The notes under the pieces are model-generated. The model searched no databases. It was given only the letters and a program-made list of their open reading frames with translations, and had not been told where the DNA came from. Position numbers and translations under genes: made by a program. Below, in pieces: positions 36,386-63,240 of a DNA stretch of 64,000 bases. How positions within the stretch are numbered: position 1 is the first letter of the stretch; every line of letters begins with the position of its first letter. Source of the stretch: Eledone cirrhosa (lineage: Eukaryota); contig OZ024740.1 in NCBI GenBank assembly GCA_964016885.1, positions 410,316,001 through 410,380,000 of the forward strand. Direction: 5' to 3'.

Positions 36386-36875
36386 TATATATATATATAT
36401 GTATATATCACGATACATTAACGGAGCCATAGACTCTCGCCATTCCCTGTAAATAATGTGCTCAAAGGAGAGGAAATCCAGGGCTCTTTAAAATACAATA
36501 TGTTGAAAAGGTAACACACTAGAAAGAGATACAGTGCGCTATCAATAAAAACAGGGAAAAACCACGAGTGTATGGAATCTATAACCTATGAAAGGCAGAG
36601 TATAGACACGATAATTAAAAATATAAATTAATAATAAATACCTCTATAACTATATAATTATATAATTATATTTCGTTTCTGAATTTGTTTAGCAAGATTC
36701 TTTATCTGAAATCGTGTGTTGAAACCGATATTGTTATACTTTGGGAGGGTCATGTTGCCAATAAGAAACACACGCACCAGTTGCTTTCACTTCAATTTAT
36801 TATATATTTATAAATTTATAAATTTACAAATCTACAAACTTATAAATTTCTGGTTGGTTGGTTGGTTCCACAACC

Positions 36876-38186
36876 CTTAAGGAACATATGTTCAAATTTA
36901 ATGGTAAAACATATGCCCAAGAGGGAGGAGCAGCCATTGGTGTTAGCATTGCAGGCGACATAGCTAACTTATTTATGGTATGGTGGGACAGTAGACTTAA
37001 ACAAAAACTTAAAGAACAATTAGAAGACAGCTTAACCCTGATAATGTACTCCCGCTACGTAGATGATATAAACATCGTAGTTAAGACACCCCCACTAAAA
37101 AACAGTCAGGAACTAGAGAAAAACACAATGGAAAGCATCCAGCAAATAGCAAACTCCATCCACCAGAGCATTAGAGTTACTATAGACTACCCAAGTAGAC
37201 ACCCCAACCATCGATTACCTGTACTAGACACAGAGCTCTGGTTAGATACCATTAACAACCAAAAACAAATCCTCCATTCCCATTATGCCAAACCCATGAC
37301 TTCCAAACATCTGATCCACCGAAACTCGGCCATTTCGGACCATACCAAAATCAACATACTGATTGCGGATTTGGTACGGGTGATGAGAAATGTGTCCCGC
37401 ATGTGCAACCCCGAAGAACTAGAGAGACACATACAACACTTCATCCACCGTATGCAGTTCTCTGGCTACAATCAGAGAGATAGAATCAGAGTGTATAGAG
37501 GAGCCAGAACCAAATGAGAAAAAATGGTAAATAATGACATAAATGGGACCTGCCCCTTGTATAGGAGCAAATTTTGGAATAGAATAGAAAGAACTAGGAA
37601 CAAGGCCAATAGAATAAACTCATGGTATGATAGCAATAAATACCAGAGTGTAATGTTCATCAATACAACCCCTAGAGGCGAACTAGCCTACAAATTTAGA
37701 AGGGCCCTAAATAAACATAAACTCAATATTAAGATAGTAGAAAGACCAGGTACCTCCGTAAAAACACTTATTAGCAAGACATACCCGTTCCAAAGACCCT
37801 CATGTATAGATAAGAAATGTATAACCTGTAAAATAAGCCCCCATATTAAGTGTAAAACTAGAAATGTAGTGTATAGCATAAGATGTACTGAAGGACAATG
37901 TAGAAACAAAAATATAGTGTACATAGGTGAGACAGCTCGTAGTATAGGGGAACGAATAAATGAACACTGGCGAGACCTTCAAGATAATAAAGAATCATCT
38001 GTGCTCTACCAACATGCTAAGATAGAACACAGGGGTAAATTAGAGAACATAGAAATAAAAATAGAATCCACACACAGAAAAGATGCAATGTTTAGGCAAA
38101 TTACAGAGGCAGTAAGCATAAAAGAATTACAACCAAAATTAAATAGAAAATATGAGTGGAACAGCAACATCACAACTTACAATTAA
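36876..38186 (+). pseudogene. PLE-A RT C-terminal half + Cys linker + GIY-YIG endonuclease; one frame broken only by TGA at 37515-37517
   Basis: FKFNGKTYAQEGGAAIG, YSRYVDD, LPVLD, HYAKPM; CIDKKCITC..C; NVVY..YIGETARSIGERINEH; RQITEAV..PKLN. Clade possibly Nematis-like (not certain). Confidence 0.93.
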
Positions 38187-38394
38187 GGACAAAATGAAAA
38201 CACACACACACATAGAACAAACAACTAACCAACAATAAATAAATAAATAAATAAACAAATAGATAAATGAACACAAACACACACAGACACCCGGATGTGG
38301 CGCATGCGCAAACTGAGCACACAACACACACACAGAAACAAAATGGCGTAGGACAGAAGAAAGGAAAGGCACAGAAACAAAGAAAGGAATCCCC

Positions 38395-38439
38395 AGTCAC
38401 TGAAGAGGTCACAGAGTGTGTGACGAAAGGACTATGACT
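38395..38439 (+). ncRNA. Minimal type I hammerhead ribozyme in the PLE-A pLTR
   Basis: Stem I AGTCA/TGACT; CTGAAGA; one extra G; stem II GTCACA/TGTGAC; GAAA; vestigial stem III GGAC; TA. Confidence 0.85.
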
Positions 38440-38774
38440 ATATATAAACAACTATCTGGTTGTGGAACCAACCAACCAACCAGAAATTTATAAGTTTGTA
38501 GATTTGTAAATTTATAAATTTATAAATATATAATAAATTGAAGTGAAAGCAACTGGTGCGTGTGTTTCTTATTGGCAACATGACCCTCCCAAAGTATAAC
38601 AATATATAATTATAGTTATAGAGGTATTTATTTACGCTTTAATTTATATTTTTAATTATCGTGTCTATACTCTGCCTTTCATAGGTTATAGATTCCATAC
38701 ACTCGTGGTTTTTCCCTGTTTTATTGATAGCGCACTGTATCTCTTTCTAGTGTGTTACCTTTTCAACATATTGT

Positions 38775-38780
<6 letters not shown>

Positions 38781-39106: not shown

Positions 39107-41075
39107 CTATCCGTTAGGGTATAATGTGGGGCTGTAATACAGGAAAGTTTTGTGCAATTTATGTTTACAAGCCGAAATTGCCTCAGATTTTTTGTTTAAG
39201 ATGTGGTCTGTGGCGTAGAGTATTTCCAGGGCCTCAGTGGCGCAGAGGTCACATGGTCTTTTATTTCCGTTATACGATCTAGCCCTAGCTAGGATCTCCC
39301 AGTGTAACTTATATTGGGTGTGGTTGTCTTTTAGACTCCAGATATAAGCTGAAAGTGACGTCATATTCCTTCTTAGAGGGTAACGAAAAGAATGGGTATG
39401 CATGTAGAGACGCTGCTTGAATCTATTGGCGGTTAACCCTATGTAGGCCCTACGAGACGTGGGTGTTTAAACCTTACATTTGTAGACAATGTAACTAGAG
39501 AGGCATTTCCCGGATAGGGGGCAACCAACCCGATTCCTACAATTACAGTTAGTACTAACTACAGGATTGCACGTGTTCCTACGGCTAGGTAGTTTAGCTA
39601 AATTTGAAGCTGTGATGTTATGTGCAAGGTTAGGAGTCGTAGAGTAAGAAATTTTAATAGTATTTCTATTAAAAAGTTTACTATATTTATGTGTAGGGCG
39701 AAAATGCTTCGTAATAAGGGATAGAAAGATCTTAGCTAATGGTGTGACCACCTCCATATTATATGGTGGGTTATACCATATAATGCGACGGGATCTATTT
39801 CTTCTAGGTCTATTCTTGTACTCTGTATATGCTACCTTATCGACAAATCCACTCCGAGCAAGAGCTTCATTGTAATATGTGCTCATTGAAGATATGCTCG
39901 TTAGTAGATAGACGGGAAAGCCTCAACAAAACGTTTCTTACCAGATTCTTGGTTATGCTGGCAGGATGTTTGGAATGCTTACTTATGTAATTAAGCGTAT
40001 CATTCGGCTTTCTATACGGGTAATACAACCCATTCGATAAATTGAGGGTAACCTCGAGGTAATTAACGACCGAGAGGTTGGCCTCAACCTGTATAGAGAG
40101 GTTGAAGCCTTTAAAGAAGGCTGTGAGTTCTTTTCTGAACCTGTCGCAAGCACAAGGGCCGCACTTAGTCATGGTCTAAAGATCATCATCACGGTACAAA
40201 CCACCGCCCGCGTTGGGGAATTCGTCCTTGATAGAGAAAAGAAGGAAAAGGCCGATAAGATCAGTAACCTCCGCAGAATCGCTGGTGCCCATACTCACGT
40301 CGAATTGGGTACTATTGGATTTTTTAATCCAAATAGAGTCGTCAAAATTAATCACCGACTTACGGGCATTGAGGATGACATCAACTTCGAAATCCTTAAC
40401 CACTGTGAGTGTTTTAGCGAAATTGATAGCTATAAGGAGAAGTGGTAAAGTGATGGAGGAGTAGTAATTATTGATGTCGAATTGGGTAAAACGGCAATGT
40501 TCCTTGTTACATATGCCGTTGAACCAATCAATCACCGCGAAAGAATTGTTCCCCAGTGCAAGAGGGGCCACACTTCTAATTTCAGGTATAATTCTATCAA
40601 GAATCCTTTTACTAAATCTACCTAAATCGGACTTCGTAGGGTTAATAAGTTGAATAGAGGGGTTGTTCGGAAAATTAGATTTGTGATCCTTCAGGGTAAA
40701 GTGGGGAGAAATATGGTCCAGAGGTTCTGTCCGGTCCAGGATGTTGCGATCAGAGGTGATTTTAAACCCAGCATCGTTGGTTTCATTGATGACGCACCGA
40801 TTAGTTTAACGGTAATCCTTAGTTACAGCATTTTGTAGTAGTTGATGGTAAGTACTGCGCTCCACTTGATATAGGTTGCCAGTTTTGTCGGAATGGACGT
40901 GCACGGCATTAGAATCCTTAATAGAACGCATTCTATTCTTCAGGTGCTGCTGGAAGGAATTGCTCCTATTCCGAAATTTGATACTCCGTATGAGTTCCAA
41001 GACATCATTTTCAAAGGGTAGCAATGCTGGGTTACACGGAGGGTTATTATAGGTTTTAAACCCAAATTATCGAGC
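39107..41075 (-). pseudogene. Naiad-type RT + GIY-YIG polyprotein with stops (TAA 40806, TAG 40176, TAA 39467) and frameshifts (~41050, ~39880)
   Basis: SDKTGNLY, TLKDHKSNF, LINPTKSDLG, QFDINNYYSSI, FDVSMGTSDSAEV, GLYRDD, YYPYRKPN, RRIIWYNPPY, CNCR..CPLSGKCL, IVY..YIGLT..FKQR, CDLCATE, LNKKSEAISACKH. Confidence 0.92.
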
Positions 41076-56833: not shown

Positions 56834-57803
56834 GAGAAAGAAGGAAAGATGTTTGAGAATTTTGACTAGCGATTCTAACCGTAAAAACTCACGATTGCTA
56901 AAGAAACAGCAAGAAGAAATGCGTAACAAAATCAAACCTAGTGCAAATATGGAGGAAATGGATAACAACCATGTTCTAATAAAAGATGAAAGAAAGGAGT
57001 CAAATTCTAAGCGCAAAAGCTATGACAAAAGCTATAACAAAAGCTATAGCAAAAGCTATAACAAAAGCTATAACAAAAGCTATAACAAAAGCTATGACAA
57101 AAGCTATAACAAAAGCTATGACAAAAGCTATGACAAAAGCTATAACAAAAGCTATAACAAAAGCTATAGCAAAAGCTATAGCAAAAGCTATAACAAAAGC
57201 TATAACAAAAGCTATAACAAAAGCTATAGCAAAAGCTATAACAAAAGCTATAACAAAAGCTATAACAAAAGCTATAACAAAAGCTATAACAAAAGCTATA
57301 ACAAAAGCTATAGCAAAAGCTATAGCAAAAGCTATAACAAAAGCTATAACAAAAGCTATAACAAAAGCTATAACAAAAGCTATAACAAAAGCTATAACAA
57401 AAGCTATAACAAAAGCTATAGCAAAAGCTATAGCAAAAGCTATAACAAAAGCTATAACAAAAGCTATAACAAAAGCTATAACAAAAGCTATAACAAAAGC
57501 TATAACAAAAGCTATAACAAAAGCTATAACAAAAGCTATAACAAAAGCTATAGCAAAAGCTATAGCAAAAGCTATAACAAAAGCTATAACAAAAGCTATA
57601 ACAAAAGCTATAACAAAAGCTATAACAAAAGCTATAACAAAAGCTATAACAAAAGCTATAACAAAAGCTATAACAAAAGCTATAACAAAAGCTATAACAA
57701 AAGCTATAACAAAAGCTATAACAAAAGAGTTAACGTGGAACATAGGGACAAGTGGAAAATGACTCTAAGTTTCCCCCCAAAAAGCAAAACGAATCCAATA
57801 TGA
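56834..57803 (+). CDS. Candidate terminal exon encoding a charged segment followed by (KSY[N/S/D])x59
   Basis: Pyrimidine-rich acceptor TTTTATCATCCATTCCTCCAG; 60 open non-repeat codons before and ~26 after the repeat in the same frame; no homology recognised. Confidence 0.35.
57015..57722 (+). repeat. 12-bp minisatellite (AAAAGCTATAAC)x59
   Basis: Near-perfect; the only variants are AAC/AGC/GAC in the last triplet. Confidence 0.99.
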
Positions 57804-58177: not shown

Positions 58178-58563
58178 ATGGTGGCAATGGTGGTTATGGT
58201 GGTGTTGGTGGTGGTGGTGGTGGTGGTGGTGATGGTGATGGTGGTGGTGGTGATGGTGGCGTTGGTGATGGTGGTGGTGGTGTTGCTGGTGGTGATGGTG
58301 GTGGTGGTGATGGTGGTGATGGTGGCAGTGGTGGTGTTGCTGGTGGTGATGGTGATGGTGGTGGTGGTGATGGTGGTGGTGGTGGTGAGGGTGATGGTGG
58401 TAGTGGTGGTGATGGGGGTGATGGTGAGGGTGATGGTCGTTGAGGTGGTGATGGGGTGATGGTGGTGGTAGTGATGGTGGCAATGGTGGTGATGGTGGTG
58501 GTGGTGATGGTGAGGGTGGTGGTGGTGATGATGGTGGTGTTGGTGGTGGTGCTGGTGATGATG
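58178..58563 (+). repeat. Degenerate (GGT/GAT)n microsatellite
   Basis: Direct observation. Confidence 0.95.
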
Positions 58564-60377: not shown

Positions 60378-60423
60378 ACAGTATATATAAATATATATAT
60401 ACATATATATATATCATCGGGAA

Positions 60424-60472
60424 GCTTCCTGATGATTTCTCCCGAATTAAACAGTTCTAGTCCTGTAGAAGT
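60424..60472 (+). ncRNA. Type I hammerhead with one core substitution (G12U) in a (TA)n-flanked 145-bp element (60413-60558)
   Basis: CTTC-CTGATGA-T-TTC(TCCC)GAA-T-TAAA-CAG(TTCTAGTC)CTG-TA-GAAG. Confidence 0.75.
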
Positions 60473-60701
60473 CTTTTCTATATTAAATATTTATACCCCG
60501 CTTTGTGTTGAGTACCTTACTTACTGTGGTTACCCCCGATTGAACCCGGGATAAACTTATATATATATGCAAATGTGGCTCATCAGTGGATCTGCTAATA
60601 TGCAGATCTGACTGATCAGTCAGTCTGCTAATATGCAAATCAGGCCGATCTGTCACTGTGTATTTTTGCAAATAGCATATATTTTCACTAGCTCTGACAG
60701 T

Positions 60702-60781
60702 TTGGCAGGTGAACAGTGAGCTGTACTGATGAAGGGTGATACCCAGAAACATTAGTGTCTGCAGTTCTGTTCACATGCCAA
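60702..60781 (+). ncRNA. Apparently intact extended type I hammerhead ribozyme; predicted cleavage after GUC (60759)
   Basis: CTGATGA 60726-60732; A.A; stem II GGGT/ACCC; GAAA 60746-60749; stem III CA(TTAG)TG; TC; 21-bp stem I (TTGGCA-G-GTGAACAG-TG-AGCTGTA / TGCAGTT-CTGTTCAC-A-TGCCAA). Confidence 0.9.
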
Positions 60782-61561
60782 CACAAGAGCAAGAATGAAG
60801 GGTTCATTCTAAGGACATGGCTATAAAATTGAGGCTTGTTTGCATAATTGCAAACGATTCGAATGTTATTATTAATATTCGAAAAACTCAGATTACATTT
60901 ATTGTATTCAGCCAAGTAGAGCGATATATATATAGTTAAAGAGTAACATGTTTGGCTGTACAATAAGGGCTTTATTTAAAGTAGTGACAATTATTTCGTT
61001 GATCAGGTGAGTCTAGAGTTCGCTAATCGCTTGAGGTTGCGTCATTCGATATCCAATACATTATTTACCTCTGGTCAACACATCAGAGTACGTAGGTATG
61101 AAAGTAATTCACTCGAGGCAAGGCTTATATAGAAAAATAGCGTATAATCAAAACAATAACATCAATAATAAAACGTGTATGGTAAATAGGTAAAGAATTT
61201 ACAGATGTAAAAAGTAAAAAGTAAAATATAAGATAGGGTACATTAAAAAATGAGAAAATGAGAAAATGGAAAATATAAAGAAATAAATAAGTGAGAGCGT
61301 GTAAGTACATAGTAGTAGTTTTTTAGTAAATGTTCTTATAAGGATTCGTTGGTTGGTTTAGTGCTAACACGAGAAACCAGATTACTCTTCATTCTTTAAC
61401 TATTATTACTCCAAGTATAACCTGCATAGAAATTACCGCGAACTCGCCGCATAACTATGGAAGCATCTTGTTGAGTCAAACAAAGCCGTACATTAAAACT
61501 ATCCACGACACAGAGTACTCACAACCTCTAACTGGATTACCTATAACGATAACTTGTTATC

Positions 61562-61803: not shown

Positions 61804-61817
61804 ATATATATATATAT

Positions 61818-63240
61818 ATTGTTATGCTTTGGGAGGGTCATGTTGCCAATAAGAAACACACGCACCAGTTGATTTCACTCCAATTTATTATAAATTAAAT
61901 TTATAAATTTCCGGTTGGTTGGTTGGTTCCACAACCGGACGGTTGTTCATATATTGGCAAAGTTCTTTCGTCACACATTCTGTGACCTCTTTAGTGACTG
62001 GGGATTATTTTCTTTGTTTTTGTGTCTCTCCTTTGTTCTGTCCTACGACATCTTGTTCATCCACCGTATGCAGTTCTCGGGTTACAATCAGAGAGATAAA
62101 ATCAGAGTATATAGAGAAGCCAGAACCAAATAGGAAAAAAATGGTAAATAATGATACAAATGGGACCTGCCCCTTGTATAGGAGCAAATTTTGGAATAGA
62201 ATAGAAAGAACTAGGAATAAGGTTAATAGAATAAACTCATAGTATGATAGCAATAAATACCAGAGTGTAATGGTCATCAATACAACCCCTAGAGTTGAAT
62301 TAGCTTACAAATTTAGAAGAGCCCTAAATAAATATAAACTCAATATTAAGATAGTAGAAAGACCAGGTACCTCCATAAAAACACTTATTAGCAATACATA
62401 CCCTTTTCAAAGACCTCCCTGTATAGATAAGAAATGTATAATCTGTAAACTAAGCCCCCATATTAACTGTAAAACTAGAAATGTAGTATATAGCATAAGA
62501 TGTACTGAAGGACAATGTAGAGATAAGAATATAGTGTACATAGGTGAGACAGCTCGTAGTATAGGAGAACGGATAAATGAACACTGGCGAGAGCTTCAAG
62601 ATAGAAAAGAATCATCTGTACTCCACCAACATGCTAAAATAGAACATAAGGGTAAATTAGAGAACATAGAAATAAAAATAGAATCTACACACAGAAAAGA
62701 CGCAATGTTTAGACAAATCACAGAGGCAATAAACATAAATGAACTCCAATCAAAATTAAATAGAAAACATGAATGTAATAGCAACATCACAACTTACAAT
62801 TAAGGAGAAAATGAAAACACACACACAACGAGTAACATGTAAATAAACAAATAAATAAACAAATATAAACACACACAGACACCCGGATGTAACACATGCG
62901 CAAACTAAGCACACAACACACATAAAAACAAGATGGCGGAGGACAGAACAAAGGAGAGGCACACAAACAAAGAAAAGAACCCCCAGTCACCGAAGAGGTC
63001 ACAGAATGTGTGACGAAAGAACTTTGACAATATATGAACAACCGTCCGATTGTGGAACCAAGCAACCAACCGGAAATTTATAAATTCTTAAATTTATAAA
63101 TTTAATTTATAATAAATTGGAGTGAAAGCAACTGGTGCGTGTGTTTCTTATTGGCAACATGACCATCCCAAAGCAAAACAATATCGGTTTCAACACATGT
63201 TTTCTGTTAAAGAATCTTGCTAAACAAATTCAGAAACGAT
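61818..63240 (+). mobile_element. PLE-A copy 2, more truncated, with inverted 5' pLTR (61818-62056), linker + GIY-YIG remnant (62057-62803) and 3' pLTR; hammerheads at 62985-63028 (+, U4C) and 61956-61999 (-, G5A)
   Basis: Colinear with 37441-38605; NVVY..YIGETARSIGERINEH; stops TAG 62131 and TAG 62240. Confidence 0.95.

Follow-up and report, generated by a model that had tools for sequence, protein, structure and literature searches.

The closest described systems to the repeat reported here are the non-LTR retrozymes of animals, the hammerhead-bearing repeats of newt and Schistosoma, and the Penelope-like elements (PLEs). It is established that the type I hammerhead motifs of newt and viroids (PMC6155905), and also those of axolotl (PMC7229834), cleave as dimeric RNAs by way of an elongated helix III, and only one of nine tested Xenopus retrozyme dimers cleaved (bioRxiv 10.64898/2026.07.22.740005). 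PLE insertions are typified by 5' truncation, a partial tandem arrangement, an adjacent inversion, a 30-40-bp tail, and (TA)n targets (PMC8557442). The consulted portion of PMC7229834 names no promoter for animal retrozymes, whose mechanisms are described as remaining to be elucidated (bioRxiv 10.64898/2026.07.22.740005), and that of PMC10886601 holds nothing further on promoter-plus-hammerhead units. A literature search conducted outside Repbase, Dfam, supplements, and most subscription papers found no cephalopod retrozyme and no U6-type promoter in a retrozyme; the families described below may be catalogued unnamed in repeat databases or supplements.

The locus under study lies in a window of 64,000 nucleotides, by which we mean the whole stretch of Eledone cirrhosa DNA that was analyzed. 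An initial annotation had recognized there an ORF-less, TA-flanked hammerhead element and suggested a cephalopod retrozyme. Reading of the sequence and a scripted check located each conserved box of the ribozyme and its GUC site where the annotation had placed them, and the script verified a helix I of 21 pairs (7 + 8 + 6, with one G.A mismatch) and a UG bulge 7 bp from the core. A proposed helix I extension (GCTCT at 60691, AGAGC at 60786), three further hairpins (arms 60792/60803, 60838/60849, and 60858/60877), and TA runs at both ends, of only about five units each, are also present (Table 1). For helices II and III the description held in part: both can form, but A.A stands at the base of helix II and the helix III sequence is a palindrome. 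The length was misjudged, as the ~370 bp taken for a whole element are a truncated copy of a ~438-bp unit. Overall, the earlier reading was partly borne out, having overlooked a U6-type promoter and the sister families. With a single ribozyme and without a terminator of its own (the terminal U-run is lost, and the next T run lies at 61319), the window copy is likely a dead-end monomer.

Table 1. Positions of the retrozyme copy, its parts, and the neighboring Penelope-like elements in the window
Feature	Position	Strand	Detail and basis
Window copy of family A	60566-60924	+	5'-truncated monomer, ORF-less; ~65 bp of 5' sequence and the U-rich last ~12 bp are missing
5' (TA)n run	60558-60568	.	likely target microsatellite; sequence
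3' (TA)n run	60924-60934	.	likely target microsatellite; sequence and ends of other copies
Three 33-bp sub-repeats	60566-60664	+	each starts TATGC(A)(A/G)AT, with an ATCAGT-like site 16 bp on
Proximal U6-type promoter element TATGCAAATCAG	60632-60643	+	predicted type-3 Pol III PSE; match to host-gene motif
RYCAGT-like site	60648-60653	+	ATCTGT in the window copy; resembles host Pol II snRNA element
TATA-like box	60678-60683	+	TATATT, 46 bp from where the U6-type element begins
Helix I, 5' strand	60702-60725	+	UG bulge at 60717-60718
Hammerhead core	60726-60759	+	CUGAUGA 60726-60732, GAAA 60746-60749, GUC 60757-60759
Helix II	within 60726-60759	+	A.A, then three G-C pairs, loop UGAUA
Helix III strand	60749-60758	+	self-complementary; sequence and folding
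Predicted cleavage site	after C60759	+	sequence reading and script check
Helix I, 3' strand	60760-60781	+	AGAGC arm 60786-60790 pairs with GCUCU 60691-60695
Three downstream hairpins	60792-60883	+	60792-60810, 60838-60855, 60858-60883
Penelope-like element	36846-38780	+	broken RT + GIY-YIG, outside the retrozyme; candidate kind of mobilizer; own minimal hammerhead at ~38396-38435, ends in (TA)n
Second copy of the same PLE	61907-63240	.	truncated; RT/GIY-YIG remnants

The surroundings are rich in other repeats. On the left flank (60413-60557) is a repeat bounded by TA runs, found also beside loci L287 and L044, which holds a CTGATGA inside an inverted repeat. Half of the window (1-32623) consists of a 35-bp satellite array of ~955 copies, and a 12-bp array (~60 copies) with a TGG-rich array (57014-57727 and 58188-58557) produces spurious long ORFs.

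Rfam gave no match in the window at the gathering score; at E<=10, there were nine weak matches, with no hammerhead model among them, and no tRNA was found in the element. A loose type I descriptor, its helix III gap being too short, missed the motif at 60726-60759 and matched just one other site of the window, at 38396 within a PLE pLTR. No second copy was found within the window by covariance model R1. The 376-nt element folds with a z-score of -6.96 and the ribozyme region with -4.51, and no shuffled sequence folded equally well in either case. The minimum-energy fold predicted for the window copy pairs the core to the strand of helix III and is 7.5 kcal/mol more stable than the catalytic fold; over 48 family A copies the median gap is 9.5 kcal/mol. 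Because the gap is shared by families B-D (5.7-10.1), it may reflect a limit of the energy model. All three helices are able to form, but the predicted pairing probability of helix III in a monomer is ~0. A double hammerhead reaches -67.6 kcal/mol versus -55.4 kcal/mol for two single folds, although a core-blocked dimer is lower still at -78.2 kcal/mol. The first position of helix II (10.1-11.1 in hammerhead numbering) is an unpaired A.A in 96 of 108 family A copies. Given this family-wide A.A and the palindromic helix III, efficient cleavage likely needs a dimer, and self-cleavage of family A RNA is predicted to occur mostly in the double-hammerhead form.

A search of the whole 3.0-Gb source genome returned 1,445 family A candidates. 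All 40 of these that were scored gave near-full-length matches and, the window copy aside, the other 39 have an identity of 94-97%. The exact 34-nt core has 1,104 genome matches (none for the reversed control), and a relaxed core pattern has 2,065. Since the exact 34-mer occurs in 29 of 108 ribozyme regions at loci not selected on the core, these 1,104 matches correspond to ~4,100 family A copies. The tandem or dispersed copies that the initial annotation had proposed to look for thus exist in both forms: the estimated ~4,100 are dispersed, and 299 head-to-tail junctions were counted genome-wide. Natural dimers define a unit of 438 and 444 nt between cleavage sites (L155 and L098, respectively) with 37-38% GC, inside the 150-450 bp typical of low-GC non-LTR retrozyme units. 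Its longest stop-free frame is 74 aa (110 aa in a dimer region), in keeping with the earlier statement that no coding remnant is present. Family A occurs mostly as monomers and partial dimers, and no long tandem array of it was seen. Nineteen promoter-bearing dimers (28 matches minus 6 of family B and 3 from a minisatellite) carry the promoter in both units; two of the 12 that were fetched, L233 and L234, have two perfect cores. The family is also present in the X1, X4, and X5 contigs, where depth falls from 3' to 5' and the X4 pieces, at depth 2-10, are too thin to be informative.

Two secondary changes to family A copies were seen. Repeated insertions of a SINE-like repeat that ends in an ATT tail lie at unit position 367/368 (L095, L097, L111, L115, L120, L180, and others), and in L246 (G000:C25:2169000-2174000) the 33-bp promoter repeat has expanded to a ~3-kb minisatellite. 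Rfam assigned no family at the gathering score to L244-L246.

The 5' part of the unit resembles a small-RNA gene promoter. The element TATGCAAATCAG lies 94 bp upstream of the hammerhead core, and the U6-type promoter element of family copies is TATGCAAAT. We located host small-RNA genes with Rfam and compared them with the 5' repeats of the element. The motif TATG(C/G)(A/T)AAT(T/G)AG stands at -77 to -80 in all seven host type-3 promoters, namely those of U6 (three types), U6atac, RNase MRP, and tRNA-Sec (two); left out of the seven were U6 loci L044 and L045 and five of six U6atac hits, which are retrocopy-like and lack the motif, as well as several U6 copies of the C19 array with an insertion in the promoter. 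We refer to this motif as a PSE and to the promoters as type-3. These host genes have a TATA box at -30/-31, 47-49 bp from the PSE start. The motif is present in none of 13 distinct U1/U2/U5 promoters, and the U6-type 12-mer matches one in 61,600 background positions. No donor gene for the promoter was found; the matches on C14 were family B.

From this motif and its spacing, Pol III likely transcribes family A from the U6-type promoter. Transcription is predicted to start at about 60708-60712, inside distal helix I, which would place the entire ribozyme within the transcript. In L003, the predicted transcript contains no T4 run before the unit end, where the first one lies at +224 relative to helix I; this oligo-T terminator of family A is absent from the window copy. 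The assignment to Pol III is weakened by a PSE-to-TATA spacing of 46 bp in family A and 41-44 bp in families B-D versus 47-49 bp in host genes. The TATATT of family A is a weak TATA box, and T-runs of 4-8 would need Pol III read-through for the promoter to be copied.

The host genes showed further promoter features. Host Pol II snRNA promoters carry a AATTAAAT-like motif near -90, RYCAGT at -57, and a TATA-like box near -31, and the same genes (L081-L083, L185-L191, and L208-L221) have a downstream AAA(A/T)CAGA motif. A 3'-box-like motif occurs in the 3' part of the family A unit, but on the wrong side of the 3' ends. In the C19 U6 array (L037, L038, and L040-L043, G000:C19), a SINE-like insertion between the TATA box and the gene displaces the promoter in some units.

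The pairing of promoter and ribozyme extends beyond family A. A U6-type motif 75-105 bp before a hammerhead core has 26,070 genome matches, compared with none for the reversed control; the independent units of this count are families, not matches. The first 100 matches listed are mainly from families A, B, and C, with one copy of family D, and a family B-specific pattern has 14,013 matches. Tandem arrays of 30 units at 466 bp and 14 units at 469 bp belong to families B and C. Families A and B are alike in the promoter motif only (22 bp, E=5e-5). In each of families A-D, a bulge of 2 nt lies 7 bp away from the core, and helices I, II, and III remain paired despite sequence differences among the families, as judged on one or two copies each. 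Helix III is self-complementary in A-D (-8.8, -4.8, -4.8, and -12.4 kcal/mol) but not in one C-variant copy, and position 10.1-11.1 is U.U in family B and G-C in family C. The hairpin directly 3' of the ribozyme recurs in families B and C. This cross-family conservation, with one or two copies representing each family, is the best evidence that the fold and the promoter are functional. We lean slightly toward the view that at least four families (>26,000 promoter-ribozyme units) captured an upstream U6-type Pol III promoter and retained it by carrying it within a circularly permuted unit that the ribozyme cuts and PLE enzymes copy; thousands of monomers would in that case be self-sufficient Pol III genes for self-cleaving small RNAs. 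Two further candidates, L307 and L309, matched the promoter-core pattern and were rejected as families for having no hammerhead fold. The family B dimers (L244, L245, and L247-L276; G000:C14:25.0-25.4 Mb) lie within a larger multi-kb tandem duplication.

Insertion anatomy was read from 88 junction loci (90 of the first 100 listed junctions, minus two duplicates), and unit ends were mapped at 111 loci, from which nine duplicates had been dropped beforehand. An inverted segment abuts the 5' end in 60 of the 88 junction loci, and the spacers at head-to-tail junctions are nearly uniform. Among 190 unit ends, 57 continue into a next unit; the other 133 are free and fall into two groups ~30 bp apart, at unit positions 395-410 (72) and 411+ (61). 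By raw count, taken with no genome background, 111 of the 133 free 3' ends adjoin TA runs. Upstream partial units extend past the predicted start in at least 8 of 88 junction loci. These insertion products, which bear the full PLE signature, are direct genomic support for PLE mobilization.

Two candidate 5' boundaries were rejected. For the cleavage site, 5 of 88 starts fell at unit positions 258-261, and a genome-wide count showed no spike (11 starts versus 13 and 4 at control positions +8 and -9, for patterns that differ somewhat in their chance of matching). For the predicted start site, upstream units run past that point.

PLEs coexist with the retrozyme, as RT and GIY-YIG remnants occur in the same window. 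The window PLE matches RVT_1 at E=8.8e-4 (below the cut-off) and GIY-YIG at E=1.5e-4 and 9.2e-5. The regions 36727-38780 and 61810-63240 are two truncated members of the same PLE family; they have 5' pLTR pieces in inverted orientation and end in (TA)n. The pLTR of this family carries the motifs GCGCATGCGC and AAAATGGCG, presumably NRF1- and YY1-like, and the 3' end of the family (AGAAACGAAAT) is similar to GAAAT motifs located close to the ends of retrozyme families A-C. On the minus strand, 39107-40805 holds a second, different broken PLE-like ORF set, two scanned pieces of which gave no Pfam match.

Family A has no sequence in common with either window PLE family at E<0.9, and the pLTR of the window PLE lacks the U6-type motif. 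Among 160 loci, searched with five window ORF pieces over flanks of 800-1,500 bp, none has a PLE ORF joined to the unit; a PLE ORF match lies nearby in 18, and the two inspected same-strand upstream ORFs (L099 and L124) are ~550 bp off with unrelated spacers. The check for a joined PLE ORF that the initial annotation had suggested therefore turned up no copy that is the pLTR of a coding PLE in these loci. Its proposal of mobilization by the PLEs of this window gains from the PLE-type insertion anatomy only as to the kind of element and is weakened by the lack of common sequence with either family. PLE-type anatomy without a joined ORF makes family A non-autonomous and likely PLE-mobilized. We are highly confident that family A is a non-autonomous, PLE-type hammerhead element, and the original placement among non-autonomous retroelements similar to metazoan retrozymes is supported, the copies being dispersed and in some cases tandem.

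A full cycle of Pol III transcription, double-hammerhead cleavage, circle formation, and PLE copying into (TA)n seems to us fairly probable. RNA would start at the U6-type promoter ~50 nt before the cleavage site, as the observed motif and spacing suggest, and most transcripts would be RNAs of ~220 nt that end at the terminal U-run of the unit. The genome holds promoter-bearing dimers, in which read-through could take in the next promoter and a second hammerhead. The two hammerheads would pair via the palindromic helix III and yield a 438-nt ribozyme-to-ribozyme monomer, which might circularize as other retrozymes do. At a TA microsatellite, a PLE enzyme would then go around the circle more than once during reverse transcription, and such copying could generate the truncated monomers, partial tandems, 5' inversions, and ~30-bp tail observed in the genome. 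As the monomer would be cut ribozyme-to-ribozyme from a dimer, a promoter outside its own primary transcript would still be inherited.

The same element and promoter could also operate with no circle, the PLE copying linear dimers or multimers or jumping between templates while the ribozyme only trims multimers, as in an Sm-alpha-like SINE. Many 3' ends do lie at the terminal U-run, as a Pol III end would give, and the prevalence of monomers and partial dimers agrees with linear templates. Uncleaved oligomers serve as PLE templates (PMC6765202), and a U6atac retrocopy fused to an inverted family A piece (L226) suggests template switching. The nearly uniform junction spacers and the upstream units that run past the predicted start nevertheless fit a continuous template, circular or multimeric, and in the retrozymes of coral, mussel, and axolotl circular RNAs are the norm (PMC7229834). 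We regard copying without a circle as unlikely, though with a real chance of being correct.

Which polymerase acts is not settled by the promoter, since family A also carries a Pol II-type RYCAGT. This element is found at -56 to -59 in 22 of 23 U1/U2/U5 loci and in none of the seven type-3 promoters, and the ATCAGT of family A lies at the same spacing, 56 bp before helix I. The site scores 10.5 by PWM in L003 and 6.1 in the window copy (ATCTGT there, ATCAGT in most family copies), with a background frequency of 2e-4, and is retained in 70 of 89 copies versus 50 of 89 for the U6-type 12-mer, a longer motif. An snRNA-type promoter might accordingly direct Pol II to family A, as in newt satellite 2 (cited in PMC2220036 and PMC6765202), or the family might be transcribed by read-through from a neighbor, the U6-type motif being inherited or secondary; T-runs would be no obstacle to Pol II. 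Families B, C, and D, however, keep the U6-type motif and TATA box without RYCAGT, and the absence of this motif from all 13 Pol II snRNA promoters also counts against Pol II, which we judge to be quite improbable.

The A.A at 10.1-11.1, the competing fold, and the lack of a 5'-end spike would suit a catalytically dead relic inside a PLE-mobilized SINE-like repeat. So would the covariation result: in an alignment that took in 48 of 156 ribozyme regions, none of 32 pairs changed on both sides among 47 family A sequences, and the score equaled that of shuffles. The most frequent variants are located at a CpG. In vitro, eight of nine Xenopus dimers were left uncleaved (bioRxiv 10.64898/2026.07.22.740005). 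Conservation of the core, however, points the other way. The CUGANGA, GAAA, and NUH elements are intact in the window copy and in 80 of 108 copies from loci chosen without regard to the core, and the majority letter is canonical at every core position. Family B has U.U at the start of helix II like axolotl HHR_Amex2, which cleaves (PMC7229834), and the fold is maintained over four divergent families, so that we consider a dead relic very unlikely. An origin of the copies from an autonomous PLE, as its solo or truncated pLTRs, is scarcely credible: the insertion anatomy is PLE-like, pLTRs carry type I hammerheads, and Xenopus retrozymes resemble pLTRs (bioRxiv 10.64898/2026.07.22.740005), but another unit sits upstream of the unit start at the 299 junctions, the two inspected same-strand PLE ORFs, among 18 of 160 loci with one nearby, are separated by unrelated spacers, stop-free frames are short, and the window pLTR is without the U6-type motif.

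The weight of the finding rests on the promoter and the multi-family radiation rather than on a single truncated copy. The promoter motif, predicted start, two-ribozyme dimers, and PLE-type products make retrozyme transcription and mobilization testable in one system. If correct, the proposed cycle would show one way in which an upstream (type-3) promoter can survive retrotransposition. Guide-RNA expression in this animal group is another possible use of the host Pol III and Pol II snRNA promoter motifs. In the same genome, the U6atac retrocopy fused to an inverted family A piece (L226:1257-1625) ends in a T run and CA/TA repeats, and U6atac copies L223 and L224 adjoin TA runs, suggesting that the same machinery copies snRNAs.

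Family A thus combines features of four described systems. With PLEs it shares 5' truncation, partial tandem arrangement, adjacent inversion, a 30-40-bp tail, (TA)n targets, and a hammerhead (PMC8557442); unlike them, it has no RT or GIY-YIG ORF and its hammerhead is full-size rather than minimal, and it has no homology to the pLTRs of the window PLEs. Like newt satellite 2 (Coats et al. 1994, cited in PMC2220036 and PMC6765202), it has an snRNA-type promoter inside a hammerhead repeat and, by prediction, dimeric cleavage via a palindromic helix III. Newt satellite 2 is reported to use Pol II, whereas the family A motif is that of host Pol III genes, accompanied by a TATA-like box, and lies in dispersed, TA-targeted copies in an invertebrate-type genome. 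Schistosoma Sm-alpha likewise places a promoter and then a hammerhead in a tandem unit transcribed by Pol III, with single copies as dead ends and an upstream unit transcribing the next (PMC6765202). Its promoter is tRNA-derived (a tRNA-Glu part, PMC4918200), unlike the upstream type-3 motif of family A, which is that of U6, MRP, and tRNA-Sec.

The closest likeness is to the metazoan non-LTR retrozymes of coral, mussel, and axolotl, which also have a type I hammerhead within an AT-rich unit that is short and free of ORFs (PMC7229834), head-to-tail copies, and coexisting PLEs (PMC7229834; bioRxiv 10.64898/2026.07.22.740005); weak helix II or palindromic helix III is seen in axolotl Amex1/Amex2 as well (PMC7229834). 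Family A differs in its 438-bp unit, compared with an expressed range of 170-400 nt, and in consisting mostly of dispersed, truncated monomers with explicit PLE insertion signatures. Circles are known from metazoan retrozymes, whereas cleavage and circles in family A are predicted. Family A also has an identifiable U6-type promoter, whereas in the consulted portion of PMC7229834 the word promoter refers to T7 constructs only. By its sequence features, family A is likely a non-LTR retrozyme, with a probable type-3 Pol III promoter as a new trait.
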